64,000 bases of DNA, from IMG/VR virus record IMGVR_UViG_3300029121_000001. The stretch is one strand, 5' to 3'. Source of the DNA: a virus. Of this stretch, positions 6,745 to 64,000 are shown piece after piece. The notes beneath the pieces were generated by a model. That model searched no databases, had not been told where the DNA came from, and worked only from the letters and a program-made list of their open reading frames with translations. Position 1 is the first letter of the stretch; each line of letters begins with the position of its first letter. A program made the position numbers and the translations under genes.

Positions 6745-9700
6745 TTACGGTGTAGATGCAAGAGCTTCAACTTTTGCTTTCATATTTCTGAGTTGTTCCA
6801 TAATATTATTTTGAATATCTTGTGCAGAATTATTAATATCTCCAATACTAGACGCAGCACCACCAGCAGAAGATGCTAGTTGTGCAATAGATCCCATATT
6901 GTTAATAATGCCATTCAAAATACTTGCAATAGCAGGTAGAGAACTGTTATTATTAGTATTTTGAGTAATCTGTTCTAGATATTTAATAATAATATCAAGT
7001 TTTTCAACATCAGACAAACTAGAAGTATTAACTGTAGTTGCTACAGTATCAATATCAGAAGCAGAGCCTCTAGACAAAGCTTTCTTTCTAACTACAGTAG
7101 GAGTAGAAGAATGGTTAGGATTGGTGAAATCATGAGTAATAGGAATCTTAGTATTCTTAGTAGAAGAACCACTTCCAGATCTACGTGCAGCCACAGCAAT
7201 AGCTTCTTGATCAAGACGGTCAAGTGCACTACCAGTACCATGTAGAGCACTATATACCTCTTCAGCACCCTTCTTACGAACAGGATACCAAGTCTTATTA
7301 GTCTTAGCTTTTTCCATACCCAGACTAGGCATTTCATAATTTCCAAGTGCTGCAGCAGCTGCATCAGCAGGAGTTTTTGCACTCATTAGATTATTATATG
7401 CCTTAGTATACTTACCAGAATTTTTCAATTCATCATAAGCAAAATCAACCTGAGTATTTAGATCACCAACAGAAGTTCCCTTACTCTTAGCAAAAGCGAG
7501 TAGATTATGCTTACGATTACCGCTTCTAGGATTGCTATTGGCACCAGTCCACTGAGCCAAACCATATCCAACATCATCGTTAGCTTTATCAGGCCACTTA
7601 TTGTTAGAGTCTACATAATTAGTGTATTCTTTATCGCCGCCATACTTCTTTTCGAATTTGTTCTCAAGATTCATAGGATTGAAATTAGACTCGTTTTTCC
7701 AACAGCCCATAAGACCAGAAATACCAGTCTCACTCATTCCTTTACTCTTAAGACGTTTCCAGATAGCTTTAGCATTATCACTTGCATTTCCAGCATTAGG
7801 AGTAGCTACAGAATTATGGGAAGCATAGTATTCCTGAACAGCAGGATTATAAACAAATCCAAGGAATCTATACTTGGAATTTCCGCCCCAGTTTCCATCA
7901 CTACCCCTCTTACGAGATTTATACTTAAACTTGAAGGAGCTAAATCCAGATTCAGAATCCATAAGTTCATCACTGGAAATAACTTTCTCAACAACAGCAA
8001 CATGGCCAGCTCTACCAACAGTACTAGCCCAAACCATTATTGCACCTGCCTGAGGAGTAGAACCTGTTTGTAGACCAAATTTAGAAGCAAGAGCATACAT
8101 CTGTCCAGCATCTGCATGGAAGTCTCTATACCTCATGGTCTTTTCGCCCTTCATAATACTATAGATATGGTTAAAACGACCGCATGCCCAACCAACACAG
8201 TTAGAAAGAACTGAACAAGTAGGATCAGTAGGATTACCAAGTCTACAATTACTCTGTCCACCATGACTTTTAGTATTATAATAAGAGATGTAAGGATCAT
8301 TTGCCTTAGGCATTTCAGTACAGATCGGGAAAGGAGAATCTCCTGTGTATACATAGCCACCACCAGAAGAACTAGTGTCTCCATAGCTATATCCAGAAGA
8401 ATCGCCACTAGTAGAAGAGTTATTAAAGCCATTAAAAATAGTATTAACGATGGTACCAAATGTTCCACCAACTTTATTTGCTATTGCATTGAATCCTGCA
8501 CTAATACCGGTATTAATAATAGTAGATACATCCATACCACTATTACTAGTAGTAGAAGCTGTAGAACTATCAACATCAGAATCTCCACCTGCAACAACTC
8601 CAAGTTTAGTCTTCTGAAGAATACTCTTCTTATAGAGAGCAGTTCCCTTTAGTTCAGGATCATCAACAATAACATTTCCATTCTTATCCTTGCCTCTTGC
8701 CACAATGTAGTGAGGATTAGGTCCAAACGGACTATTGGTTTTAGATTTGTTTCCATCATCTTCACCAAGAAGAATAGTAGGTTTACCAGAAGAAATAGCA
8801 GAATTAATATCAGTCCTATTATCAGTATACTTAGTATCAATTCCATTTCTTCCAAGGATATCTCCAAAATAAGATGCATTAGTACCACGTTCAGATTTAG
8901 TGCTACCTGCAACATATCCCATCTTCTCAGCATATTTAGCAGTATCTGTAATATCAGTATTCTTGCCAAAAGCTTTCAAGACGGTAGATGCAACAGCAGG
9001 TCCACATCCATCTTGATCAATAGTGCTATTACCAAATTTAGTGAAGTTACCCTTTTGTGTTGTATGGATATCAGATCCAGATCCATTAAAGAAACTGAAA
9101 ATACCTTTCTTTTTCTTCTTAGAAGATTCGATCTTAGCTTTAGCGAGTTTAGCTTGATATGCCTTCTGGGAAGCACCAGATCCAGAGCCATACTTTGCAC
9201 CAGATGCTTCTTTGTTCAGATCAATATTAGATTTACTTGCAGATAGATTATCTTTTGTATCATCCTTACTAGTATCTTTATTCTTTCCTGTGAAGAAATT
9301 CTTGATATTAGTTACAGTTTTTCCAACAAAAGACTTAAACTTATCCTGAGTAGTACTCTTTCCAAGTACGTTATAAACATACTCTTCTACGTTATAAGTG
9401 TGGCCAGTTTCCTGGTTATAAGCTTCAACTGTTGCTTTAGCATCGGCTCTCTTATCAGCAAGAGTACGTGTTAGTCCCTTAAGAAAACGAGATAGAACAT
9501 TGAATACAATGTTAAAGATAGTAGTAGAACTAATAATGCCTCCAATACCAGGAATAGCGTAATTGATACCATTAACAGCAGCAGCTACACATCTTTCAGC
9601 AATAGTAGGCTTTTCAATAATTCCAAGGATACTCATAGCACGGGCATCTTCAAAACCATCTTCAACAGCTAGAGCAATCTGTCCTATATAAATAGCACCA

Positions 9701-12700
9701 GCAATCTTACTAAGAACACCAGTTACCTTAGATCCAGCCTTACCAATTGCTTGTGCAATCTGTTCAGCACAATCATCAATCCAACTAGTATCTTTACCTA
9801 GTTTCTTAGCTACGAAATTAAGTACAGCACGAACAGCACCCTTGCATTTATTTGCAATTTTTGCCATTATTTCAGCGTTCTTACTAACACCAACAGCAGC
9901 ATCAGGATCAATAACTTTAGTAGCAGCTTTATGTGTGAGTTTATCAACACCCTTTTTAAATACATCTCCTACTTTAGATGCACCCTTAAAAGGAGCAGCT
10001 ATTACTTTGCCAAAAGTAGTCTTACTAATAGCTGTTGCTGCTTTTCCAATACCAGGAATCTTACTAATAGAAGTTGCTAATTTTGCACCAGATAGAGCAG
10101 GATTATTACCAAAACTTAGTAGAGCATTTGTGGCAATTCTCTTCTTAAATCTATCAGAGAAGAAAGAAGATACATGATCATCTTGCTCATATGTAGTCAT
10201 CTTTTTGCCAGTAGCACTGATTTCAAAACGATCTACACCAAGTTTTGCTCGCTTCAGAATTTTTCCTATTCCTTTAACTTCCTTCTGGCGTTCAGTAGGA
10301 TCCATTCCTTTGCGCATTCCAGAATCTGCATCTGTTCCAGCAGCTTGTCCACCAAGATAGCTTAATCCTATAATGGTTGCAGCAGATCCTAAAATCGTAG
10401 GAAGATGTGCTATTATAGTTTTACCGAAAGTTCCTCCTAGGAAAGAAGTTATACCATCAAAAATCTTACCGAATAACCCAGAAGCTTTATCCTTAACAAA
10501 ATCAAGTATGGAAGATTTTTTCTCTCCATCTTCATCTGTTTTGCCAATACCGAAAATATCCTTGAATTTATCAAAGAAATTTCCTCCGACAAACATACCA
10601 AAGAATTTGTCCTTTAACTCAGAAGCTTTTCTCTTAGCTTTAATAGCAGCATTAGTAACAGCATCTGCAAGATTAGCAATCCATTCACCCTTAGTATTCC
10701 TTGTATACTGAATTGGATTGCCTTCATCATCAAGAACTGTCTTTGTATTGCCATCTCCACTACTAGCATTATCTCCTGTTGATTCTCCACCTTCCTGAAT
10801 AGGAGCAGAAGAATCACCTGTTACCTTTTTGGTAGGATCTTTAGCTCTATTATTACGGATAATCTCTCTGACTTTTCCTACTTCGATTCCTAGTTTCAAT
10901 GCAATACGCCAATCATTAACACCAGTATTATGAAGGCGCATAACCTCTTTAATAGTGTCTGTTGTAATGATCGTATTATTGCTATTGTTTTCTTTAGGCT
11001 TAGTATTTTCTCCAGCTACTTTTTCTGCTAACTTTTCATATTCTTTCTTAACCTCTTCTGCTTTCTTCTCCATTTCCGTAGAAGGCTTAGAAGAAGTAGT
11101 GTCCTCTTTATTTTCAGGAGGAACTACTCCTGCAGGAGTAGTAGAAGTTTCTTTAGCAGCATCAGCTATAGTAGCTTCTGTTGCAGTAGCAGGTTTCTGC
11201 TCTTTGCTTTCTGCTTCTTCAGTCTGCTTTTCTCCAGTAAGAGATTCAAGAATACCAGAAATCTTATCAGAAATAGTATCTAGAATGGTATTACGTTCAA
11301 TATCGAGTTTATCTACAGCCTCAGTAGTTGCTTCACCAGGTGTAACATTAGCTTTATTATTCAGAGCTTCTCTAGCAGCATCTTCTTTCTTATGAATACC
11401 AGCAGCATCCATACGAAGTTGCATACGAGTACGACGTAGCTCTTTCTTACTCATCTTGCTAATATCAAGACCACTTTCATTGAAGAATGTTTTCTTCTTT
11501 TCACCATAATCTTTAATATCAGCATCTATTTCGTTTAGTCTTTTAACCTCTGCTTCGATTTTTTCTGTCATCGATTTTTTAGTTGTTTCATCGAGGTTAG
11601 AATTTTCAATCTCTGCAATAACGTCGCTATAGTCATTATTATTTTTCTTATGATAATTCATAAGTTTAGTAATAGACTTAGCGAGTTTCTGGTCAGGACC
11701 GTTACCACCATGAGGAAGAGTTCCTACTAGAGTATCTCTTAGATTTTGACGAATCTGATGCTTTTCCTGCTTTAGAACAGTAGGACCATTAAGAGCAGCA
11801 TTTGCTGTCTTAATCATCTTATCACGTTCTTCTCCACTGTATTTAAGCTCCCAATCTGTCAATGCAGATTTTCTAACTTTTTTTCTTCCAGTGAAGAATT
11901 TATATCCAGAATTCTTTTCAATATCATCTCTCTCTTCTGCAGACAGAGAAGAATATCCTTTATTGATATTATGTCTTTTTAAAGCATCACCTGCGGCTCC
12001 CATAAGTTTAAAAGGAGCAGTGATAATAGCTTTGCCAACACCTAAAGCTTTTTTAGCAATCCATTTACCAGCCGTAGCTACAGGAGCAAATAGAGCATCA
12101 AATTTTTCACCAATAGTACGTCTTACAACATCCTTGGCACTGTCTACTATAGACATCATGATGCTCTTAGATTTACCCTTGACCCAATCAGTAAGAGGAT
12201 CAAACAGTCTCTTTATAGGACTAAAGAAATTCTTTTTCGCAAAGTTCTTAATTTTTTCAATACCGTTTTCAGTAAATTCTGCTAGAGGATCTATGACACG
12301 AGTTTGAATAGAACCAAGAATACCACCATGTCTTTCTCCGTTCAGTCCTTCTTTACCGAACATTGCAGATTTAAAAGTTTCAGTATCCTTAACAAGTTCA
12401 ATACCGGCACCAAGTACAAATCCACCCATGACACCACCAGGAGCAAGTCCAATGGTTCCAAGAATTGCACCAAGTGCACCAGCTTTACCCATATCAGGAA
12501 CTTTTTCTGTGATAAATTTCTTAGCTCCTTTAGGAAGAATTCCCTTCTTAATCAGATTCTCGTGATCATCATATTTTCCAAATAGAGCTTCTGATAGAGC
12601 CGTTGAATTGTTAACAATAACAGCACCAGATCCTAGAACAAGGCCACCAAGAAGTCCTAATCCAGACCCAGTTAATGCTGCACCTGCAAGTGCACCAAGA

Positions 12701-17762: not shown

Positions 17763-17839
17763 TGGTGGGCCATGTAGGACTCGAACCTACGACCATCCGG
17801 TTATGAGCCAGAAGCTCTGACCAACTAAGCTAATAGCCC
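17763..17839 (-). tRNA. tRNA-Met (anticodon CAU; elongator-type, or tRNA-Ile2 if lysidine-modified), CCA encoded
   Basis: Minus strand: GGGCTAT TA GCTT AGTTGGTCA GAGC T TCTGG CTCATAA CCGGA TGGTC GTAGG TTCGAGT CCTAC ATGGCCC A CCA. Full cloverleaf folded by hand. G1-C72 argues against an initiator. Confidence 0.9.
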
Positions 17840-17871
17840 TTATAAGTAGAATTAGGGGAGATAATTCTACA

Positions 17872-17953
17872 TGGTGCAGGAAAAGGGACTTGAACCCTCA
17901 CTCCGAAGAACTAGATCCTAAGTCTAGCGTGTCTGCCATTCCACCATTCCTGC
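17872..17953 (-). tRNA. tRNA-Leu (anticodon UAG), class II with long variable arm, CCA encoded
   Basis: Minus strand: GCAGGAATGGTGGAATGGCAGACACGCTAGACTTAGGATCTAGTTCTTCGGAGTGAGGGTTCAAGTCCCTTTTCCTGCACCA. Anticodon stem CTAGA/TCTAG with loop CTTAGGA; T arm GGGTTCAAGTCCC. A 9-bp spacer hairpin (17846-17870) separates it from tRNA-Met. Confidence 0.9.
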
Positions 17954-17974
17954 AAATATAAAAGAGCTAATAAC

Positions 17975-18142
17975 TTAATTAGTCTGATTCGAATCCGTAC
18001 TATTATGTATGTCTTGTAAAGTTTGATCATCTAAAAATGTAATAGCATTTACATTTTTAATCTTGCCTTTAGAAGAAATAAAGTGATTAATTTCTTCAGG
18101 TGTAGATGAACAAAGAATTTTATAAAAATCAGATTTGTCCAT
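17975..18142 (-). CDS. small hypothetical protein (55 aa, MDKSDFYKILCSS..)
   Basis: ATG 4 nt after TAGGAGGAAT. That SD is the 3' arm of a 10-bp hairpin (18147-18188). Below the ORF-track length cut-off. Confidence 0.5.
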   Translation of the reverse strand: MDKSDFYKILCSSTPEEINHFISSKGKIKNVNAITFLDDQTLQDIHNSTDSNQTN

Positions 18143-18194
18143 TAATATTCCTCCTACAATATTTTGTATTATATTGTTTAGGAGGAATTAAAGT

Positions 18195-18458
18195 TTAAAT
18201 ATAATAAAGCGTAGATATAGTGCACTCCATTATAATTATTCCAGAAGCATTATAAGCAAGTGCCATTATATATGAATCTATTTGTGTTAACATACATTTA
18301 TATCTTATTACTTTCATATTTAATGAATATCCAATCATAGTTCCAGAAGCTAAATAATAACAGTATTCATTAAAGTTACCATATTGATTATTTATCTGTG
18401 TATATACTGTTTTTATATCAGATAATTTATGTATAATATTTTTCTGAGAAGCGTCAGA
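18195..18458 (-). other. start-less ORF cassette A3 (87 codons, SDASQKNIIHKL..ISTLYYI*)
   Basis: Frame opens at TCTGACGCTTCT of the junction repeat. No start codon and no RBS upstream. Ends at TAA 18195-18197. Confidence 0.55.
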
Positions 18459-18464
18459 TTTATT
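18447..18464 (-). repeat. junction repeat copy (AATAAATCTGACGCTTCT)
   Basis: Identical 18-mer to the copy at 18700-18717. Confidence 0.9.
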
Positions 18465-18474
18465 TGATAATATA

Positions 18475-18711
18475 TTAAATATAGAATATTCTTACATTAT
18501 ATTTTGCTAAAATAATATCATGTGCGTTTAAGTCAATATTAAATGCAGCGATTCCATATTGTGAATTACTAATGTAATATATGGATACATATGGAAGTCC
18601 AGATATAGAATTCACATCTTTACATACTGCAGATATTACAGTTCCATTTTTAAAAGTTTTTAGTTCTGGGATATACATATCTATATATTTAATTTTAGTA
18701 GAAGCGTCAGA
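18475..18711 (-). other. start-less ORF cassette A2 (78 codons, SDASTKIKYIDMYIPEL..RIFYI*)
   Basis: Opens at the junction repeat, in the same frame as the end of A1. No SD before its internal Met. Confidence 0.55.
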
Positions 18712-18717
18712 TTTATT
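18700..18717 (-). repeat. junction repeat copy (AATAAATCTGACGCTTCT)
   Basis: Read directly from the sequence. Follows the TAA that ends cassette A1. Confidence 0.9.
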
Positions 18718-19638
18718 TTATCTTATCATTATAAGAGGGAAAACTCCTTTACTACCATAATACACAGGTGCATTAGCAACTTTTACTTCAGATCCAGATG
18801 CAATATACCATGGCATATCATAACTGTGTCCTCCTTGAGGATAGCTATTGTTTGATAATCCACGTAAGAAGCCATCTCCAAATTACCAAGTAGTAAAATT
18901 AAAATATGGTAATTTATAATTAGCTTCACCATCATCATATTTGTTGTTATTAGAAGCAAATTTACCAGTAATTTGTCCAGCACTCATTAATGTACAATAT
19001 GCATTTGTCCAAGCATAACCTGTATTAGTAAGATTGCCATTGACATATTCAGTTTTATTAGATAATAATACCTTTCTTTTAACTAAATGATTATAAAAAA
19101 TAGATTTTTTCATCAATATATCAGCTGTAGTTGAATTCAAATCTTTATGCACACCTGTACTTACATATCCAGTATCTTCAAATATCATGCCATTTGATGA
19201 TTTATAAAGAGGTTCTGTAGGAATCATAAATATACCATATCCATTATCATATGGTGTTCCATCTGAAGCAGTTTTATTATGTTCACAATCAAAACCTACA
19301 ATAACCCATTTCTTATTGTAAGTACCATCTTTAATAGTTATTGTAGAACCAATAGAAGCACCATAATAACCTGTAAAATTACTACATCTAATAAGAAAAT
19401 CATCTAGATCAATAGTAGTTTCATCATGATTAATGGATAATGTGCCAAGGTCTTGAACTTTATATCTAGTATTAGGAGTAGAAGTATCAATAGGAAGATT
19501 TTTTACATCTCCTAGTATTTTAATAATAATAGATTGTATAGTTGTATTTTTACTAAATTTACTTTTAGCAGGAATTCCTCCAACTGTGTATCTTGTTACA
19601 ATATCATTCTCTAATATTAAATTAGTAGAAGCGTCAGA
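18718..19638 (-). other. start-less cassette A1: lectin-like receptor-binding module, paralogue of 23361-24227, with an in-frame TAA at 18883-18885
   Basis: Opens TAA TAA TCT GAC GCT TCT directly after a terminator. SDASTNLILENDIVTRYTVGG..WTNAYCTLMSAGQITGKFASNNNKYDDGEANYKLPYFNFTTW * FGDGFLRGL..LIMIR* is colinear with the locus B module. Confidence 0.6.
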
Positions 19639-19643
19639 TTATT
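19627..19643 (-). repeat. junction repeat copy (AATAATCTGACGCTTCT)
   Basis: Identical 17-mer to the copy at 24445-24461. Abuts the poly-T of the upstream terminator. Confidence 0.9.
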
Positions 19644-19656
19644 ATAAAAAAAAAAT

Positions 19657-19686
19657 AAAAGGGAGTAGATTTCTCCACTCCCTTTT
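19657..19686 (-). terminator. rho-independent terminator after the 19691 gene
   Basis: AAAAGGGAGT..ACTCCCTTTT hairpin followed by a 10-nt T-run on the minus strand. Confidence 0.7.
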
Positions 19687-19690
19687 ATAA

Positions 19691-20136
19691 TTATTCTTCG
19701 CCTTCTTCCCATTTATGATGACGCTCTTCTTCGAGCATCCTCTCGTTAATAGACTTTGGAAGTCTCTTCATACGAGATACATTGGTGATATACAGCTTGC
19801 TATCATTACCAAGCTCAACAATGTACTTGCATTTTGCATTGAATACGGGAGGATAAAATTGCGTCCAGCCTTTATCAAACAAGTACTGATAGCAGTACCT
19901 ATAAATCTGGCGCATAGTAGCACCAGATTTTGCATTGCCATGATTCACCATATGGCGAAGCATGGCGGAATATTTTTTACCCTTACGGGTAAAAATCAGG
20001 TTGATATCATGCTTTTCATGCTCAAAAGGAGCACGCGCATGGCATTCATGGCTTTGTCAAATTCCTCCCAGTACTTATCTTCATCACTGATACAAGTAGT
20101 GTTGATATCGTTCATATTGTTGTTCATGTTAGCCAT
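19691..20136 (-). pseudogene. split hypothetical gene: a 46-codon ORF with a strong RBS overlaps the -1 frame of the 90-aa ORF (frameshift, programmed or not)
   Basis: AAGGAGG RBS + ATG at 20136 opens MANMNNNMNDINTT..; TGA at 19996-19998. The frame of ORF 19691-19963 is open from 20056. The two frames overlap by 61 nt (19996-20056). Confidence 0.45.
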
Positions 20137-20338
20137 AATAAAGTCCTCCTTATAGACTTCCAATATAATAAAATATTCTTCTAAGAAGGAATATATTTAT
20201 CCTTCTTATCACTTTTATACTATACAAGTGAAATATTTAAATTGTTAAAAAAATAAACCAGTAGAGATTTCTCCCTACTGATATTTTTAATTATACATAC
20301 ACTACTATTATCTCATTAGTATTATTGCGCAATTAATA

Positions 20339-20587
20339 TTAGTGAGATTTAATAACATTAAAGATTCTATCAAACTTAGCAATCTCTTCTTGAGTATAAT
20401 TTTCTCTACCAAGTCTTGCTAATGTATTAGCATTGATAAGAGTATCTCTTTGCATAGAAGCGTTAGCATTAAAATACCCATTATCTCTAGAAATATACAT
20501 AGCATTTCTAGGATTAAATTTCTCCCAAGCAAGACGAATGAAAGTCTGATTCATCGGTACCAAACAATATATAACATCTCCGTCAAA
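20339..20587 (-). CDS. RNA polymerase beta-prime-like subunit (N-terminal-half type), exon 2
   Basis: Frame is open from 20587 and reads FDGDVIYCLVPMNQTFIRLAWE.., colinear with E. coli beta-prime [20 protein letters not shown]. No RBS or start of its own. Confidence 0.75.
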   Translation of the reverse strand, partial: FDGDVIYCLVPMNQTFIRLAWEKFNPRNAMYISRDNGYFNANASMQRDTLINANTLARLGRENYTQEEIAKFDRIFNVIKSH

Positions 20588-21129
20588 CCTAAATCGGACA
20601 CTTTAGGAAAGTTAAAATTGAAATAAGCGAATCTTATGTCATTCATGTACCCTTACACATGAAATATTTAAAATTGCTTAAAACTGCATATTTTAACTTT
20701 TCTTTTAATTTAGCGATCATATCTTTATCCAGTAAAGATTCTGCAATTCTTTATTTATCTGGATATATATCGTTTCGATTTAAATGGATTTATCTGCTGC
20801 CTCAGTACCATACCTATATAATATAGGCTCTACATAATGATCTGTGGGCACACTCATTTCTGAGCTTCGCTGCTGGTTGTCAATTTTATACTATAATAGT
20901 ATTGATCTTTAAGGAACTTAATTTTCATTAAGCTTTTATTGCATCCTAGATCATCCTGTAAATTCTTTCTGACTTTCGTCGGCTTTCACGCTTACCATTG
21001 CTAGTTACGTTGTAGCTTTACAGGCATTATGGTTTTCCAGCAATTAGATATATTAGCGACTCTAAATTACTTTAGAGAAGGGACTTCTGTGGTGATATTA
21101 TATATTATAAATAGCACCACTGCTATTTA
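20588..21129 (-). ncRNA. group I-like intron (542 nt, no ORF) inside the beta-prime NADFDGD motif
   Basis: 5' exon ends ..GCGGAU and the intron ends ..CCGAUUUAGG. An internal GTCC can pair with exon GGAU. R-like CACAGATCATTATG and S-like AAGATATGATCGC can form a P7 helix, GATCAT/ATGATC. Stops in all frames. Confidence 0.6.
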
Positions 21130-22554
21130 ATCCGCAGCCAAAAATTTCAAGATCTGCAGAGGAACTGCTAGAGTATAGGTATTAGTAATTCCAACACAGA
21201 ACATTTGCAGAATAGAGCCATAAGCAAGTGTAGGATTTCGGCCAATTATTACCGGTAATCCACGCATACCTTTATGCTTAAAATCATCAATGATAGATTG
21301 AATAATCGTATTGATCTTTTTATTAGGCTCAATAGTAGCTTTATACCAGATATCATGAGCTTCTGTTGGAGTCATACCATGCATACGGCAAAGAATATTT
21401 TTAATTCTCTGCTCAAGCATAACAGTCAGAGCAACTGCAGGCATTGTAATTTCATCAATACGAAGATTGGGATTTTGAACGATAACACAACGAGAAGAGA
21501 AGTTATACCGTCCACCGAGAAGACATCTAAAATCACCTTTCTTACCAGCAAGGATATTAATTTGCTCTGAATAAATATCCATAAACTTCTTCTGGAGATT
21601 ATAAAGCTGCTGATTCTTGATCTTAGGTTCTCTCTGAATAGCAGTCTTATTCTTGTTGATAGAAGTTGCTAGTTTATTGATCATGGCATACATTGCATTT
21701 GTAGGCTCATATGTCATGTTATTTCCATCGATATCAAAAGGACGAAGTAGAGTAGTAATAACAGGAAGAGACGATGAGAATACAGACTCTCTAGCTTCAT
21801 AAATAGCATCATAATAACTCTTCTTATTAGGATACTTTTTAATATAATAATCCATAATCTCATCGAATCTTTCAGTGAATTCTATCATACCAATTCCAAA
21901 GAAAGGTTCATCCTTAAGCTTAGGATCATCTCTAGACATCGTATTGAGAACAAGTTGAGTATCTGTGACATCAAGAATATTCTCAAGCTTAGTACGCTTA
22001 TTACCTTGAATATAGATGCCCTTACCAAGAATAGATTCAATATAGATATAGAATGTAGGATGAATAAACTTATATGGTTTAGATAATTTAATCCAACCAC
22101 AATACTTGAAGTTATCATCTACATATGTGCACAAGTGCCCACATTGAGGACAGCGAAGACCATAATTAATACGTCCTCTAAGTCCTCCTTCTTTACATCT
22201 ACAACGATACCTATCCATAAAAGGATTAGTATCAGCAAGAGTCTGTCCAAACTTTGGAGAGAAGATACCATCTTCTGCACGAAGATCTTTCTTGATGTTA
22301 CGTCCTGCAGGTTCTACAATAAAGCCATTGCCTTCACGAAGATCATCTTCACAAGCTTTATCATAATTAATGATCTCAAGCTTACCAGAGAATTCATATT
22401 TATCAGAATGAGGATAAGTTTTACTGGTAGACATAAGATCATTAAGATGAGGCTTAAGGAAATTAAATTCCTGTTGATGCTTCATCTGATATTCGATATT
22501 GTAATCGTGGAGTTGTTTATAGTTGCTAGTGTCAACATTATATTTCGTTTCCAT
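21130..22554 (-). CDS. RNA polymerase beta-prime-like subunit (N-terminal-half type), exon 1
   Basis: Zn-ribbon CRCKEGGLRGRINYGLRCPQCGHLC; NPTLAYGSI..LAVPLQILKFLAAD ends at the first Asp of the catalytic loop. TAAGGAGG RBS present. Confidence 0.8.
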
Positions 22555-22647
22555 TGAATAAAAATCCTCCTTAGTGTATTTATACTTTTGGAGATAATAT
22601 CTTACAAAAATTACGGTGGTCTAATCATAAAATCATAACCTTTCTAT

Positions 22648-22666
22648 CAATATTATAATATATCCT
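22648..22666 (-). promoter_or_regulatory. candidate promoter motif GGATATATTATAATATTGA
   Basis: One of four near-identical ATATATTATAA[TA]A boxes, each upstream of a minus-strand gene start. This one lies about 94 nt before the beta-prime ATG. Confidence 0.3.
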
Positions 22667-22677
22667 TAAAAGATTTT

Positions 22678-23241
22678 TTAAGAATTATCTGTAAATTTAT
22701 TCAGTTTCATTATAGTATTATAATCAGGATCATCTAATCTAGGCTGTTTAGAATCGTCTTTTAGCAGGTATACTTTTCCTTTAAACGGTTTATATTTAAT
22801 ACCAACAGCATCAAGCATTCTAGTAGCTTCTCTAAAATCTGCTGTATCAGGATATTTATTAATGCTATAATAAATATTCTTTACTCCTACTTGAATAAGA
22901 GCCTTAGTGCAATTATGACAAGGAAACATGGTTACATAAAGAGTAGATCCTCTAAAAGCAGAAAGATCTCCACGGAAGTTGAGAATAGCATTTTCTTCTG
23001 CATGTACTACATAAGGATATTTAGTATCTTCTTCATTTTCTGCTTCCCTTGCCCAAGGAAATTCATCATCAGAAATTCCATTAGGAAATCCATTATAACC
23101 AATGCTAAGGATACGATCATTAGAAGATACAAATACTGCACCAACTTGAGAATTAGGATCTTTAGATCGCATTGCTGCCATTCGAGCAATGCCCATATAC
23201 ATATCTTCTTTAGAGATATAATTAGTGCGTTTATCTGACAT
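22678..23241 (-). CDS. dCMP deaminase (cytidine/deoxycytidylate deaminase zinc-binding family)
   Basis: VVHAEENAI (H-A-E zinc/catalytic motif) and FPCHNCTKALIQVGVKNIYY (P-C-x-x-C). AAAGGAGG RBS present. Confidence 0.9.
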   Translation of the reverse strand: MSDKRTNYISKEDMYMGIARMAAMRSKDPNSQVGAVFVSSNDRILSIGYNGFPNGISDDEFPWAREAENEEDTKYPYVVHAEENAILNFRGDLSAFRGSTLYVTMFPCHNCTKALIQVGVKNIYYSINKYPDTADFREATRMLDAVGIKYKPFKGKVYLLKDDSKQPRLDDPDYNTIMKLNKFTDNS

Positions 23242-23284
23242 GAGATAGCCTCCTTTAAATTTAGTAATTAATTGTCAAATGAAA

Positions 23285-23329
23285 AATTAAAAAATAATAC
23301 TAGGTAAGGAATCTACTTCCTTACCTAGT
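23285..23329 (-). terminator. rho-independent terminator after cassette locus B
   Basis: Perfect 13-bp stem ACTAGGTAAGGAA / TTCCTTACCTAGT, then a T-run on the minus strand. Confidence 0.8.
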
Positions 23330-23360
23330 ATTTTAAAATTTCATAAAGTGGTTAATTATA

Positions 23361-24350
23361 TTACCTAATATAAATAAGCGGACGAAGACCGAGCCTGCTA
23401 TAACAGAGGTTCCAATCTGGTTTACCAGAATTTGAAATACCATAGACATAGTTATTGCCATAACTTTTACTGCATATTCCACGCAACCAAGCCCAATTAT
23501 CAAAACTCCATGTTTCATAATTGAATAATGGTAGTTTATAATTAGCTTCTCCATCATCGAATTTATTACTAGTAGAAGCAAATGTGCCAGTTACTTGTCC
23601 TGTACTCATTAACGTGCAATATGCATTAGTCCATATATAACTATTAGCACAATAATTAGAATCTCTAGAAGTACTCAATAGAACATTACGTAGTACAAGA
23701 TGCTCACCAAGTACTCTCTTAAGGTTATCTGCAACTTCAGATAATATAGTCTTATTTATAGCAGATCCATTATATCCTTTTTCAGTAGAACTAGAATCCC
23801 ATACTACACTACCTAAACTCCTCCTAGGTATTAAACATATACCATATCCATTATCATTAGTATTTCCATCAGATGCTGTTTGATTGTGTTCCATATCGAA
23901 ACCAGCAATAATCCATTCTTTATTATATACATCATCTTTAATAGTAACATAACTACCAATAGTAGCACCGTAATAACCAGTATCATGGCAACATCTATAA
24001 AGAAAGTAATCTATATCACTAACATTAGACCAAGTCCCAAGATCCTGAGACTTATAACGTGTATTAGGTGTAGAAGTATCAACCGGAAGTTGTCCACTAT
24101 CTCCTAGCATTTTAATGATAATAGATTGTATAGTATCAGTTGCAGAGAATTGAGATCTTTTAGATATACCTCCAACAGTATATCTAGTATTATAAATTTG
24201 GACTCCAAGTTTATTAGAAGCGTCATTCTTATTAAATATATATGATGTTTGCATGGCAGTCATCAGTATAAGATGACGCTGTACCATTACTCCAGTGTCT
24301 AATCCATCTATAATATAATTTTCCGTTATTTTGATAAATCCAATCAGCAT
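23361..24350 (-). CDS. lectin-like (C-type-lectin/DUF1566-like C-terminus) receptor-binding tail-fibre module (cassette B2); true 5' end uncertain
   Basis: 329-codon ORF, but the ATG at 24350 has no RBS. Homology to cassette A1 starts at the junction repeat (NDASNKLGVQIYNTRYTVGG from 24227). C-terminus: ..WAWLRGICSKSYG..YSRLGLRPLIYIR*. Confidence 0.55.
   Translation of the reverse strand: MLIGFIKITENYIIDGLDTGVMVQRHLILMTAMQTSYIFNKNDASNKLGVQIYNTRYTVGGISKRSQFSATDTIQSIIIKMLGDSGQLPVDTSTPNTRYKSQDLGTWSNVSDIDYFLYRCCHDTGYYGATIGSYVTIKDDVYNKEWIIAGFDMEHNQTASDGNTNDNGYGICLIPRRSLGSVVWDSSSTEKGYNGSAINKTILSEVADNLKRVLGEHLVLRNVLLSTSRDSNYCANSYIWTNAYCTLMSTGQVTGTFASTSNKFDDGEANYKLPLFNYETWSFDNWAWLRGICSKSYGNNYVYGISNSGKPDWNLCYSRLGLRPLIYIR
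24216..24233 (-). repeat. junction repeat, variant copy (AATAAGAATGACGCTTCT)
   Basis: Shares AATAA and TGACGCTTCT with the other four copies. Marks the start of A1/B2 homology. Confidence 0.8.
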
Positions 24351-24456
24351 CGTTTCTTACGTCATCTAATATATCAAATCCTATTATAGTACCATTTAAT
24401 GTATATCCAGATTTTGTGATATAAATATTATAAAGCTTCTTTATAGAAGCGTCAGA
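24232..24456 (-). other. start-less ORF cassette B1 (74 codons, SDASIKKLYNIYITKSGYTLNG..HANIIYI*)
   Basis: Opens TAA TAA TCT GAC GCT TCT directly after a terminator. No start or RBS. Ends ..YI* like A2 and A3. Confidence 0.55.
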
Positions 24457-24461
24457 TTATT
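24445..24461 (-). repeat. junction repeat copy (AATAATCTGACGCTTCT)
   Basis: Identical 17-mer to 19627-19643. Confidence 0.9.
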
Positions 24462-24500
24462 AAAAAATAAAAGGAGTGAAGATTTTACTCTTCACTCCTT
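24458..24500 (-). terminator. rho-independent terminator after the 24506 gene
   Basis: 12-bp stem AAGGAGTGAAGA / TCTTCACTCCTT, then TTTTATTTTTT on the minus strand. Confidence 0.8.
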
Positions 24501-24505
24501 CTAAA

Positions 24506-25711
24506 TTATTTCTTATATTCCATTTCGTAGAAACTCAAATCATACGGATATGGAACTTTTGGTTTACAGTTTCTATCACAGTATCCACAAGATTTGGATT
24601 GTCCACTTAACACTGAAGACAATATAGGAATATTAAAATTGCCACAATCGCACTTGCAAATTACTCGTTGATACAAACTTGGTTTATTAATGCTTATATC
24701 TTCTGGGTTATAAATATATGCTGCTTTGATTATAGTAAGTTTTCCATGATGTTCACCTTTATAAATTTTATCAACAGCAGATGGAGTTGATTTCTGATAC
24801 TTCTTACCACACTTGTCGCAAGTAGTTCTCTGCAGTTTACCATTCTCTAATTTTGTAGATACATATCCTCCACAATCACATTGACATACCACATTAAAAT
24901 GAGAAATCGTGCGATCATATCCACTAATTACAGGTACTGCTTGTACGATTCTAAGTTTTCCATACTTCCTTCCAATCAATTTAGGTGTATATTCTTTTGC
25001 ATAGCAGTATACGCATTCACCATATTTTTTATTCCAGGCAAACAGTACATCTTTGCAATCAGTATATGCATTACCACATTTAATACATTTAAATGTACAC
25101 TTATCGAGATCTTTTGTAACACTAATAAGTTTAAGTCTTGAAATACGTCGTTCAAGATCCATTCTGCATTGAATTTCCATCAATTCATCGCACTTAGTGC
25201 AATTGGGATATACAGATAGTGCATTATTTAGTGTAATACGATTGACTTCACCACAAGAATGAACTGTATAGACATATGTGGTATTCATCAATTTAATGAT
25301 GTTGTCACTGGTAAATTCACATTCTACTTTATCATATCTCCTATCATCTCTAGAAAGATTTCCAATAATCTGACACCATCCAAATGCCTGATGGTCTTGA
25401 GCCCAGATATATCCTACGTATTCATTAGGATCAAAGATGTTGTCACACTCCTCTTTAACGATGAATGTATTGGACTTGCTAGCTTCAAGTATAGCATTGA
25501 ATGCATCTTTTGAATTATCAATACCATATACATTAGAATCATATGCGCTAATATAGAGATTGATATATTTATCACTTGTAATAAAGTAATGCCCTTTTGC
25601 TTTTATGGAAAATATCATTTCTCTATTTAAGCCAATTCCAATGAATAGTGTATTAGGAAAATACTTATAGATACTTTCCATATACTCGATAACCTTTTTC
25701 TTGTCAATCAT
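24506..25711 (-). CDS. zinc-ribbon repeat protein (401 aa), function unknown
   Basis: Start moved to the ATG at 25711 (AAAGGAGTAGTTAAA ATG). C-terminal modules: RKYGKLRIVQ..VVCQCDCGGYV..CDKCGKK and EHHGKLTIIK..VICKCDCGNF..CGYC. Same module as the 1126-1884 protein. Confidence 0.8.
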   Translation of the reverse strand: MIDKKKVIEYMESIYKYFPNTLFIGIGLNREMIFSIKAKGHYFITSDKYINLYISAYDSNVYGIDNSKDAFNAILEASKSNTFIVKEECDNIFDPNEYVGYIWAQDHQAFGWCQIIGNLSRDDRRYDKVECEFTSDNIIKLMNTTYVYTVHSCGEVNRITLNNALSVYPNCTKCDELMEIQCRMDLERRISRLKLISVTKDLDKCTFKCIKCGNAYTDCKDVLFAWNKKYGECVYCYAKEYTPKLIGRKYGKLRIVQAVPVISGYDRTISHFNVVCQCDCGGYVSTKLENGKLQRTTCDKCGKKYQKSTPSAVDKIYKGEHHGKLTIIKAAYIYNPEDISINKPSLYQRVICKCDCGNFNIPILSSVLSGQSKSCGYCDRNCKPKVPYPYDLSFYEMEYKK

Positions 25712-25758
25712 TTTAACTACTCCTTTTTTAAATTGTATGATAGGACAACTTCTTCCTA

Positions 25759-25781
25759 CCATATTTATAATATATATTCAT
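25759..25781 (-). promoter_or_regulatory. candidate promoter motif GAATATATATTATAAATATGG
   Basis: ATATATTATAA box about 48 nt upstream of the 25711 start. Confidence 0.3.
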
Positions 25782-25787
25782 TTCATA

Positions 25788-26762
25788 TTAAAAGTAAATA
25801 TCTCTATTAAAAGCCTCTTTAAAACTCGCTTTAACTTTACTGCTATTCACATTACAATAAATCATAGTAGTCTCTAATTTGGCATGCCCGAGAACTTCTT
25901 TAATCTGTTCTACAGGCATTCCTCTATCCATTAGATGAGTTGCACAAGTTCTACGGAATCGGTGAGGATGTACATTCTCTACTCCAGCTCTATCACCAAT
26001 ATCCTTAAGAATTAATTCTGCACCTCTTGGAGTCAATCTATGGCCATTTGAAAGATGTGTGAATAAAGGTTGATCCGGTTGAGCATAACGTTCTTCTAAA
26101 TATTCTTGTAAGTATTTCATACAATTATTACTTAGATAAACAACTCTCTCCTTATGACCTTTACCAAATACTATAACTTCGCCTTCATTGAAGTTGATAT
26201 CTTTTACATTAAGACTAATAACTTCAGCAAGTCTAGTTCCAGTAGAATATAGAAATTCAACAAATGCTTTATCTCTTTTATTAGTACATTCTGCTCTAAG
26301 AGCATCCATCTCAACATTAGAGAAAGCTTTCTTGATTTTCTTTTCACACAATACTCTTTCAATTTTATTAGTAGGATTTTTCTCAATGAATTCTTCATTT
26401 ACAAGAAATTCATAAAAAGAGCTAATAGCTCTAATCTTAGTCTGTAATGTAGCAGCTTGAAGATTTCTTGCTTTAACCATATAGGCAAGATAATCCTTCA
26501 TATCTGCAGTAGTAATGTCTAAATAACTCTTTCCATTATAGTACTTAGCCATTGCTCTAACTTCTGTTACATATCCGGTCAAAGAAGATGGTTTTAGTCC
26601 TACTAAACTTTTCTGTTGTATGAAGCGTTCTATCAACTCTTCATTTGGTAGAGCGGTTCTAGATGTTCTTAGAATTGTATCCAGAACGTTTTTCAATTTA
26701 GCTAGTTGAATTTCATTTAATTCTGGTCCCATCAATTTTAGGATCATCTCTATATTAGTCAT
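25788..26762 (-). CDS. tyrosine recombinase (phage integrase / XerC-XerD-like family)
   Basis: N-terminal SAM-like domain (..IRAISSFYEFLVNEEFIEKNP). Catalytic region: STGTRLAEVISLNVKDI, GKGHKERVVYL, HPHRFRRTCATHLMDRGMPVEQIKEVLGHAKLETTMIYCNV (R..H-x-x-R..H..Y). Start set at the ATG at 26762, after GGAG. Confidence 0.9.
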   Translation of the reverse strand: MTNIEMILKLMGPELNEIQLAKLKNVLDTILRTSRTALPNEELIERFIQQKSLVGLKPSSLTGYVTEVRAMAKYYNGKSYLDITTADMKDYLAYMVKARNLQAATLQTKIRAISSFYEFLVNEEFIEKNPTNKIERVLCEKKIKKAFSNVEMDALRAECTNKRDKAFVEFLYSTGTRLAEVISLNVKDINFNEGEVIVFGKGHKERVVYLSNNCMKYLQEYLEERYAQPDQPLFTHLSNGHRLTPRGAELILKDIGDRAGVENVHPHRFRRTCATHLMDRGMPVEQIKEVLGHAKLETTMIYCNVNSSKVKASFKEAFNRDIYF

Positions 26763-26810
26763 CGCTATATCTCCAATCACAATTAATGTACATTAAGGAG
26801 GACTTTTCAA

Positions 26811-62220: not shown

Positions 62221-64000
62221 ACAGTTGACTATCGTCGTAAGGAATTCCTGCTATATCTTTAATAGATCTATCGAGTTCTACCATAAGTTTAGAAGTTGCT
62301 GCAAATAGAGGAATAGAACATGTCATACGTCCAGAGATAGAACTTAGAGACATGAAACTGTCAATATGCTCATTGGGTCTGAAAGATGTATAAGGTTCTT
62401 GATCCTTAGGAATAATCTTTTTAATAATACCCTTATTTGCAGAATAGAACGTAATCTTATCACCGGCAGACATAGTATCTTTATGCTTAATATAATAAAC
62501 AACAAGAACTGCGTCATCGATATTTTTAGTTTTACCAACTTCAGGAACTTTACCAGTTTTAGGCAGAATAGCAGAATCGATATTGTATTTGTCGTATACC
62601 TTCTTAGTGGCTTTGACTTTCTTTTCATAAGTACCAACAAACTTACGAAGAGATTCAGACATTTCATCTTCACTACAAGTGCGATAAATCTGAATATCAC
62701 AGACAATTCCGGTATACTTAGATTTAACAGGGTTACGACCTAGTTCAGAAATTTCACCAGCATCCATTGCTAGGTTCTTAAGAAGAGTATTCATCGCTTC
62801 GTCATCAAAGTCAGCTTGATAAGTAAATAGAGTATCACCCTCAATAACATGATCACCGATCATTTTATAGACAGCAATATTAGATCCTTTTTCAAGCTTA
62901 GTTTCAATGCCTTGAATAACATCAGTACCCATCTTATTAGCAAAAGATTCTGTAATCATAGCAGAGTCTTCAAATCCTTCATCTGTATTAATAATAGCAA
63001 CTTTTGCAAGTGTGCCCATATTAGCAGCAAGATTACCAGATTCACCAAGAGATTTAGAGAAAGATAGTTTATCATATGCAATAACTTGACCAGCCTTAAA
63101 AGATTTACCTTCTGCAAGATCTGTATCAAGTTTCATAGGTACATAATAACCACCATCAGAGTTTTTCTTAACCTCTTCGCAGAGGTCAATATACTCATGC
63201 TTGCCACTCTTATATTCGACAACCATGTAATTTTTCTTACCAAATCCCTCTTGAACAAGTTCTACAATTTTACCATCTTCTTTTGCTTTATAAGCAAAGA
63301 TGTCAGAGGTAAGATAAGGTAGAGCTTCATCTGCACCAGTAGTAATAAGCGTAGGATCATTATTGTCACAACGAATCATATGCTTAGAAGTCTGGACATA
63401 TGTCATTAGAGATCTAGGAGGATCATCATGGGTTGTTCCAAGAGGAGTAACAGCTTCAGTGATAGTAAAGGAAGAAGCAGAAGACAATTTATCAGTATTG
63501 CCATCAATTGTTTTAACAAATCCTCTACCACCTTCAATATTAGCATTAACAGTTGCCTGACGATTAATACCAACGTTACCAGAGAATCCAGTATCCATAC
63601 CAAGGACATTTAGCATGGAATCGTCATACCCACGTGTAGCAATAGTATAACCACGAGCAACATTCATACCAACTAGACCTTTGTTAGTAACAGAGTTTGC
63701 ACACTCGACGTCATTAAGAGCATTATTAACAGAAAGGTCAGAAGTAGCAGGATCTTTAGAAACAATTAGATCAATAACAGCAGATTGTTTAATTGTCATC
63801 TTAGTTCTCTTACGAGTATGACGATTCTGGTTAGCATAATCTTGATAAGAAGTAGTAAGAGCTTTGTAGAAATAGCCAGCAATAAGCTCTTTACGACGCC
63901 ATCTACGACCTCCTTGATCAATATGACGTACATACTTATTATCTGCAAGCATATTACTTGCATGAATTAGTACACCAACGTAATCACTAGGAAGTTTAAA
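62219..64000 (-). CDS. RNA polymerase beta-like subunit, C-terminal part (5'-truncated by the window edge)
   Basis: Frame is open to position 64000 (..FKLPSDYVGVLIHASNMLADNKY..). GDKITFYSANKGIIKKIIPKDQEPY parallels bacterial beta GDKMAGRHGNKGVISKI.P.EDMPY. A hybrid-barrel-like GDTLFTYQ block is also present. Confidence 0.75.
   Translation of the reverse strand, partial: FKLPSDYVGVLIHASNMLADNKYVRHIDQGGRRWRRKELIAGYFYKALTTSYQDYANQNRHTRKRTKMTIKQSAVIDLIVSKDPATSDLSVNNALNDVECANSVTNKGLVGMNVARGYTIATRGYDDSMLNVLGMDTGFSGNVGINRQATVNANIEGGRGFVKTIDGNTDKLSSASSFTITEAVTPLGTTHDDPPRSLMTYVQTSKHMIRCDNNDPTLITTGADEALPYLTSDIFAYKAKEDGKIVELVQEGFGKKNYMVVEYKSGKHEYIDLCEEVKKNSDGGYYVPMKLDTDLAEGKSFKAGQVIAYDKLSFSKSLGESGNLAANMGTLAKVAIINTDEGFEDSAMITESFANKMGTDVIQGIETKLEKGSNIAVYKMIGDHVIEGDTLFTYQADFDDEAMNTLLKNLAMDAGEISELGRNPVKSKYTGIVCDIQIYRTCSEDEMSESLRKFVGTYEKKVKATKKVYDKYNIDSAILPKTGKVPEVGKTKNIDDAVLVVYYIKHKDTMSAGDKITFYSANKGIIKKIIPKDQEPYTSFRPNEHIDSFMSLSSISGRMTCSIPLFAATSKLMVELDRSIKDIAGIPYDDSQL

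Follow-up and report, generated by a model that had tools for sequence, protein, structure and literature searches.

Arrays of start-less cassettes in an uncultivated jumbo phage as a probable tail-fibre switching system

Cassette loci A and B

The IMG/VR virus record IMGVR_UViG_3300029121_000001 was analysed as a single stretch of 64,000 nucleotides, hereafter called the window. Two loci on its minus strand, locus B (cassettes B1 and B2) and, ~4 kb away, locus A (cassettes A1, A2 and A3), hold silent open reading frames (ORFs) that begin at a shared short motif. We suggest, with a probability of roughly 0.78, that both loci are unoccupied arrays of silent 3' cassettes belonging to a programmed tail-fibre switching system.

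Locus B opens with the predicted intrinsic-terminator hairpin and T-run of an upstream Zn-ribbon gene (24468..24503), which insulates the array. The junction motif TAATAATCT GACGCT TCT (24445..24462) follows at the 5' end of B1; we propose that it serves recombination and is a vacant site for the insertion of an N-terminal module. The silent cassette B1 (24232..24456), SDASIKKLYNIY..NIIYI*, comprises 74 codons (24456-24235) and a stop (24234-24232). It is preceded by TAA TAA and is start-less, with no in-frame ATG, GTG or TTG. A variant junction motif, AATAAGAAT GACGCT TCT (24216..24233), stands in front of the silent cassette B2 (23361..24227), NDASNKLGV..PLIYIR*, which encodes a large receptor-binding-type domain of 288 codons plus stop and has no start codon. 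B2 begins AAT GAC GCT TCT at 24227, 4 nt past the B1 stop, and its codons run to 23364. A predicted terminator hairpin (23296..23332) closes the array. The start of the 329-aa ORF called in this region (P0001, 23361..24350) is a gene-caller artefact, because its ATG is reached by reading through B1 out of frame, and the first 41 codons are B1 read in this way.

Locus A follows a further predicted terminator hairpin (19655..19688). Its first motif and cassette, A1 (18718..19644, 306 codons), is a large paralogue of B2, with 51% amino-acid identity over ~290 residues (E = 4e-92). A1 has an in-frame TAA at 18885-18883, where its homologue P0118 has Gln, and this copy is therefore currently defective. 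Two small silent cassettes follow, each with its motif, namely A2 (18475..18717, 78 codons, ..RIFYI*), of which a near-identical copy occurs in a different array context in the related locus L006, and A3 (18195..18464, 87 codons, ..TLYYI*). Genes for tRNA-Met(CAT) and tRNA-Leu(TAG) lie directly downstream of array A (17763-17953). B1, B2, A2, A3 and their full-length homologues gave no family match in Pfam or PHROGs.

The sequence TAATAATCTGACGCTTCT is present on the minus strand as an identical 18-mer at 24462-24445 and 19644-19627, and as two further copies with 3 mismatches at 18717-18700 and 18464-18447. Allowing up to 3 mismatches, these 4 matches compare with 0.15 expected in the window. 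The core GACGCTTCT has five exact copies on the minus strand (24453-24445, 24224-24216, 19635-19627, 18708-18700 and 18455-18447), which are the starts of the five cassettes, and none on the plus strand of the window. From each motif the reading frame is x-GAC-GCT-TCT, and the cassettes start x-D-A-S. The stretch of 75 nt from hairpin to motif is 77% identical between loci A and B, and hairpins like that of array B precede array A as well as many arrays of relatives.

An earlier note on this DNA had described a second cassette locus ~4 kb from the first, with the same motif directly after a terminator, and terminators are indeed predicted directly 5' of both arrays. Its description of B1 as a 74-codon start-less ORF, its pairing of B2 with A1 as full-length paralogues and its remark that the ATG of the 329-aa ORF is reached only through B1 in another frame were borne out. 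The 17-mer it gave for the two loci is identical as stated, but is in fact an 18-mer, and the five nt it placed between the B1 stop and the B2 junction count as 4 nt.

The motif is constrained well beyond these five copies. Among 88 distinct silent cassettes, the core T-GACGCT-TCT is conserved, followed by AA at +12/+13, and the edges of the core, ~10-12 nt long, are sharp. In a codon-agnostic scan for start-less ORFs starting x-D-A-S/T (n = 73), the motif Asp was GAC in 72/73, whereas GAC accounts for 10% of Asp codons across the six long window genes that served as background, indicating that the constraint acts on DNA. Motif copies are conserved also at untranslated positions, and a short repeated site, the putative crossover, was found at the constant/variable junction of every segment. 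The silent cassette ORFs are intact over 61-307 codons despite a genome of 33% GC. Between two silent B2-type copies dN/dS was 0.35, and it ranged from 0.18 to 0.54 among expressed copies. The silent copies are thus under purifying selection, which fits periodic expression.

These figures bear on the possibility that there is no dedicated system, and that the cassettes are debris or modules swapped by general or microhomology recombination at a conserved linker, the start-less copies being decaying pseudogenes. Such a view would find support in the nonsense codon of A1, in arrangements that are stable across several samples and in one breakpoint in L006 that lies ~20 nt upstream of the motif. 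It does not account for the rare GAC codon and the sharp core edges, for the conserved non-coding motif copies or for dozens of ORFs of this length kept open at such a GC content and dN/dS, nor for the exact junctions flanking 99.97% identical DNA reported below. We consider it quite unlikely.

Start-less ORFs conserved directly 3' of hairpins could also be taken to mean that the cassettes are expressed in place, at the level of RNA or translation, by trans-splicing, ribosomal bypass or non-AUG initiation at the motif. The genes upstream, however, differ in frame and are unrelated. In the window only the two tRNAs reached the Rfam gathering threshold, and no intron or other RNA family did, and the fusions at DNA level, together with the empty and occupied sites described below, fully explain the data. 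Expression in place is hardly credible.

Other candidates were tried and rejected. Self-cleavage of the Peptidase_S74 type at S-D-x-x-x-K was set aside since residue one is variable (S, N, Y, F or T) and no Pfam match was obtained. Against stop-codon recoding, the long genes are free of in-frame stops and the only tRNAs are tRNA-Met and tRNA-Leu(TAG). An intron or splicing was rejected on the Rfam result, and ribosomal bypass since the upstream genes differ between the loci and no matching take-off and landing codons were found on reading the sequence.

Expressed fusions and the mobile N-terminal module

At the DNA level, the relatives of the window are uncultivated human-gut jumbo phage contigs of ~250-277 kb. 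For motif scans of viral contigs a 14-mer was too unspecific and a 16-mer usable. The relatives carry tandem cassette arrays on either strand and in several places per genome, with more than 20 cassettes in one 15-kb stretch. Where divergent arrays meet, head-to-head motif pairs stand 26-27 bp apart (L072 6912/6939; L098 4978/5008; L279 9442/9468 and 13109/13135).

We found 509 homologues of B2. Many of them are 419-439 aa long and consist of a constant 137-aa N-terminus, MAIIDKIKVGSTTYDV...IYSMNQTLTSL, followed by NDAS and a B2-like domain. Many more are ~250 aa long and called from an internal Met, the pattern that a gene caller would be expected to yield on start-less copies. A search with the N-terminus only gave 80 proteins, ~60 of which (205-244 aa) are made up of the N-terminus, NDAS and a small domain ending ..YYI*. 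Among the N-domain proteins, P0178 has a B1-type domain as its C-terminus, and this domain type is also expressed at L207. The fusion junction in the DNA of relatives reads ACTTCGCTA|AATGACGCTTCT, in frame at N-D-A-S. One N-terminus is thus found with small or large cassettes, which are therefore alternative C-termini of one gene, with a 5' part that is constant and start-less 3' segments that are alternatives.

We call this gene a tail fibre gene because a paralogue of the N-domain heads a protein with Phage_fiber_rpt, the Pfam family of phage tail fiber repeats. Neither the N-domain nor a fibre gene was found within the window. In relatives, a frameshift at one and the same position splits the neighbouring fibre gene, which has an N-domain of this type and Phage_fiber_rpt, in three assemblies that are independent (L001 6579-9054; L002 4209-5047; L195 6816-8394). 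The frameshift could be programmed or reflect a homopolymer error.

The expressed genes all share the same surroundings, with a terminator or a cassette end as left flank. They are headed by a module of ~945 bp, flanked by GACGCT, the anatomy of which is conserved in at least eight loci. In brief, the module begins with a left 'null' end, M1 (xxT GACGCT ATTACGAAGTAG), which reads SDAITK* and is followed by a terminator. The middle part of ~300-370 bp contains M2, a motif copy in inverted orientation, set among 4-5 repeats of TTGTGAAG-N7-TTTAAGA. The 5' gene part comprises a leader and ribosome site and then the coding region of the 137-aa N-domain, ending ACTTCGCTA AAT, and M3 (GACGCT TCT) closes the module. 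The expressed cassette comes next, followed by further silent cassettes. The leader presumably contains the promoter. In the non-coding part (L001 9460-9999; L277 560-944), M2 and the repeats are accompanied by a duplicated element, CCnAAAATGGGnAnTTTTAAGA; the repeats, M2 and CCnAAAATGGGnAnTTTTAAGA could be promoter or accessory sites.

From M1 to M3 the distance in L001 is exactly 944 bp. L277, a contig of 1,085 bp from an assembly with k = 141, has an exact terminal repeat of 141 nt and thus corresponds to a 944-bp circle or tandem unit. It contains a hybrid junction, N-domain...CTAAAT GACGCT ATTACGAAGTAG, in which the left side of M3 is joined to the right side of M1 (AAT GACGCT ATTACG). 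The same hybrid junction is present in L278, from another sample. L278 also carries a chimeric N-domain (933-1374), of which the first ~45 residues are fibre-type and the rest module-type. This chimera directly follows the Zn-ribbon gene and ends in the hybrid junction, read as NDAITK*; it suggests further rearrangements or tandem modules.

The B2-type domain is in addition linked to a diversity-generating retroelement (DGR) in two relatives. In L001 and L002, an expressed B2-type gene is followed by a 272-aa accessory gene, a template repeat and a reverse transcriptase (RVT_1), which together form a complete DGR with the B2-type gene as target (L001 10001-13790; L002 6001-9767). Mismatches between template and variable repeat fall on template adenines in 15/16 and 8/8 cases, respectively. 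No reverse transcriptase, accessory gene or template repeat was found in the window, and the tip of its B2 copy is diverged at all bases. The best Foldseek match of an AlphaFold model of B2 (pLDDT 75) was an IgA peptidase (E = 1.2e-3). A C-type-lectin-type fold, which had previously been read from the C-terminus of the 329-aa ORF, is plausible for the modelled domain. The role of the B2 family as DGR target in relatives speaks for it indirectly, whereas the several C-type-lectin matches to the model were all weak, with E above 1.

Rearrangements and the proposed mechanism

Direct evidence for movement comes from near-isogenic phages of ~275 kb, in which one 171-residue cassette is found both fused to the N-domain (P0203) and as an internal-Met call (P0201). 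The genomic segments L279 and L280-L283 are collinear with 96.7-100% identity, and L280 to L284 are ~100% identical to one another. The module occupies site X in L279 and site Y, located 3,245 bp downstream, in L280-L284, and its orientation is kept between L279 and L280. The 3,245 bp of DNA between the two sites are 99.97% identical. The empty site X reads TTTCAATCT GACGCT TCTAAGAAT, and the occupied site X reads TTTCAATCT GACGCT ATTACG...CTAAAT GACGCT TCTAAGAAT. Site Y has the same empty and occupied pattern. In general form, TCT GACGCT TCT-cassette becomes TCT GACGCT ATTACG...CTAAAT GACGCT TCT-cassette. In addition, two whole cassettes of L280 are missing in L279, where, in each case, one motif's left flank meets the right flank of the motif that follows. 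As judged from the sequences, the exact junctions and the hybrid junction are signatures of conservative site-specific recombination with GACGCT as the overlap.

An inversion-only shufflon, like R64 Rci, p15B Min or bifidophage Rin, would join a constant 5' segment to the cassettes solely by inversions between motif copies of opposite orientation, the apparent transposition being the net result of several of these. Shufflons driven by tyrosine recombinases are known in phages (PMC6109161), and motif copies do occur here in both orientations, including the head-to-head pairs and the inverted copy in the module. The module of L196, a relative discussed below, lies on the strand opposite to arrays A and B, so that a single inversion could fuse it to B1. 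Between the near-isogenic genomes compared, however, we saw no inversion, only an order swap that keeps orientation, two direct-repeat deletions and the 944-bp circular or tandem junction, and inversion as the sole mechanism is unlikely.

Gene conversion of the pilS/vls type, in which silent cassettes are copied into a fixed expression locus, would be suggested by silent copies that are 5'-truncated and promoter-less, by there being only one expressed gene and by the short repeat conserved at the cassette borders. Between L279 and L280, though, the cassettes stay and the N-terminal module relocates, and the expression locus (leader and 5' gene part) is found in at least three genomic contexts. 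We regard gene conversion as very unlikely.

At 24462 and 19644 the window has exactly the structure of the empty site, that is, terminator, T-run, AATAATCT GACGCT TCT and cassette, so that both loci are silent arrays that no module occupies. L196, from a 257,858-bp contig, matches the window at its positions 1-713 (window 63288-64000) with 98.6% identity and carries a module at 9574-10409 on the plus strand, so the module of the window most likely lies ~9 kb beyond its right end, where it would express a different small cassette.

Based on these observations, we propose the following mechanism. Each cassette would be an alternative C-terminal, presumably receptor-binding, domain that starts with T-GACGCT-TCT (x-D-A-S) and lacks a promoter, a ribosome site and a start codon. 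These parts would be brought by the ~945-bp module, which would excise and insert by conservative recombination within GACGCT. Where the module lands, N-domain, NDAS and cassette would form one complete gene, and cassettes further downstream of the fused one would remain untranslated. Cassettes themselves could also be excised or inserted between motif copies, and B1, B2 and A1-A3 would be stored alternatives. Module insertion probably lets the phage change its receptor-binding tip. Switching may take place within the time scale of an infection, and the domains may set host range.

A candidate for the enzyme is encoded beside locus B. The Xer-like tyrosine recombinase of 330 aa (25788..26780, minus strand) scores 220 bits with the XerA profile and 102.6 bits with the IntI-type profile TIGR02249, against a cutoff of 265, and is thus not IntI-type. 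It lies beside locus B in the window and in L001, L002, L195 and L146, that is, in every fetched locus covering the region. We infer that it is the likely enzyme for module movement.

Several points weigh against the proposed switching system. The recombinase is no more than a candidate, by family and position, and around the motif no core site with dyad symmetry is evident. A tandem duplication, in place of a free circle, could also explain L277, and the scheme gives no role to the inverted motif copy M2 inside the module. The presence of a module in the genome of the window beyond 64 kb is projected from a relative. Five assemblies from different samples show one arrangement, and the locus B arrangement of the window is present in all five long contigs carrying P0001, and is therefore stable in this lineage; switching must accordingly be too slow to break assemblies. 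Finally, the L279 module is only 96.3% identical to that of L280, compared with 99.97% for the DNA between the sites, so that the event may involve a second strain and not a simple hop.

The earlier note had proposed that start-less, motif-bounded cassettes encoding receptor-binding modules are shuffled between loci. In agreement with this, the same cassette types are fused to a constant N-domain in relatives, and the comparative data likewise point to receptor-binding modules. The comparison of related phage genomes that the note had recommended showed near-isogenic genomes differing by precise rearrangements at the motif. Its choice of moving unit holds in part: cassettes do move, but not alone, as the ~945-bp module outside the window moves too.

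The window, of 33% GC, also encodes gyrase and dCMP deaminase, a multisubunit RNA polymerase beta' that is split, and a protein of 3,164 aa containing lysozyme and CHAP domains. Among isolates, phiR1-37 and AR9/PBS1 come nearest by RNA polymerase beta' (~30% protein identity), and megablast of window positions 17900-24800 against isolated phages gave no match. The beta' gene (minus strand, 20339-22554) is interrupted by ~543 bp (20588-21130) inside the catalytic NADFDGD motif: a 475-aa ORF ends ..LAAD, and coding restarts at 20587 with FDGDVIYCL. The gene is uninterrupted in L001, L002 and L195. The interruption, which had no Rfam match at E <= 1, may be an intron or a mobile insertion. Upstream of locus B, a 418-aa protein (24506-25762) contains many CxxC pairs and matched no family in Pfam, NCBIfam or PHROG. 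Its DNA cannot be aligned between relatives; the flanking genes have ~79% DNA identity.

Significance and comparison with known systems

Phage spread and phage therapy are limited mainly by host range, and programmed switching of receptor-binding proteins has so far been known from small inversion systems of temperate phages. An abundant group of jumbo phages, uncultivated and from the human gut, appears to keep dozens of alternative fibre tips in store, one of which is seemingly activated by bringing a promoter and 5' gene part to it. This would account for hundreds of 'hypothetical' truncated ORFs in gut viromes, for the annotation of which T-GACGCT-TCT offers a precise sequence rule. How jumbo phages track variable hosts becomes a testable question, and a compact, in-frame cassette-exchange system of this kind could be engineered.

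Integrons consist of the integrase IntI, an attI site and attC cassette arrays with promoter-less cassettes. The present system resembles them in its tandem promoter-less cassettes, in the signature of a circular intermediate (the 944-bp circular or tandem contig), in motif-bounded gain and loss of cassettes and in site-specific insertion, probably by a tyrosine recombinase. It differs in that the cassettes are gene fragments without start codons, and in that the reading frame itself contains the site, a core of ~10-12 nt in place of a folded attC; no second conserved or palindromic block was found in the -30 to +35 profile of the cassettes. There is also no IntI-type integrase and no fixed platform of attI and promoter. 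The promoter-bearing part is itself mobile, and the logic is therefore reversed. We consider it about an even chance that the system is best described as a 'reverse integron'. The phage Xer-like recombinase would move a non-autonomous minicircle of ~945 bp, with promoter and 5' gene part, in frame to any of dozens of scattered silent 3' cassettes in either orientation, and the DGR would further diversify one cassette type as a second layer. With the DGR itself the likeness is that the B2-type domain is its target in L001 and L002. A DGR diversifies the C-terminal tip and has no relation to the N-terminal junction motif, and the window is without DGR parts.

In pilE/pilS and vlsE, silent cassettes serve as donors for gene conversion of a fixed expression site. 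Like the present system, these have arrays of silent cassettes that are truncated at the 5' end and bordered by short direct repeats, but here it is the expression module that relocates. In the vsa system of Mycoplasma, the recombinase HvsR switches surface proteins by inversion. The Mycoplasma vpma system, with Xer1, also switches surface proteins (PMC2268961). In both, as in the cassette arrays, site-specific recombination lets many silent genes share one expression-competent 5' region, and a Xer-like recombinase is encoded beside the locus. The vpma and vsa systems use inversions in a single bacterial locus, whereas the evidence here is for excision and insertion, in a phage and for a tail fibre.

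The shufflon Rin, found in Bifidobacterium prophages, and the inversion systems Min, Cin and Gin combine the constant N-terminal part of a phage tail-fibre or receptor-binding gene with alternative start-less C-terminal segments, a short asymmetric repeat (11 bp in Rin) precedes each segment, and in Rin a phage-encoded tyrosine recombinase lies nearby (PMC6109161). The constant N-terminus, the start-less C-terminal segments and the short asymmetric repeat before each of them have counterparts in the present arrays. Those systems are compact, adjoin the constant part and invert. Here, in contrast, an apparently lytic jumbo phage carries arrays, of up to 20 or more cassettes, at scattered places in its genome, and modules are inserted and excised and cassettes gained and lost between direct repeats. 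Full-text literature searches found prophage inversion shufflons but no description of this arrangement.

We therefore suggest that the closest phage precedent is Rin, together with Min, Cin and Gin, and that Xer1/vpma and the integrons are closest in logic. New here would be the mobile unit of leader and 5' gene part, the large dispersed arrays and the mode of excision and insertion, in an apparently lytic jumbo phage.

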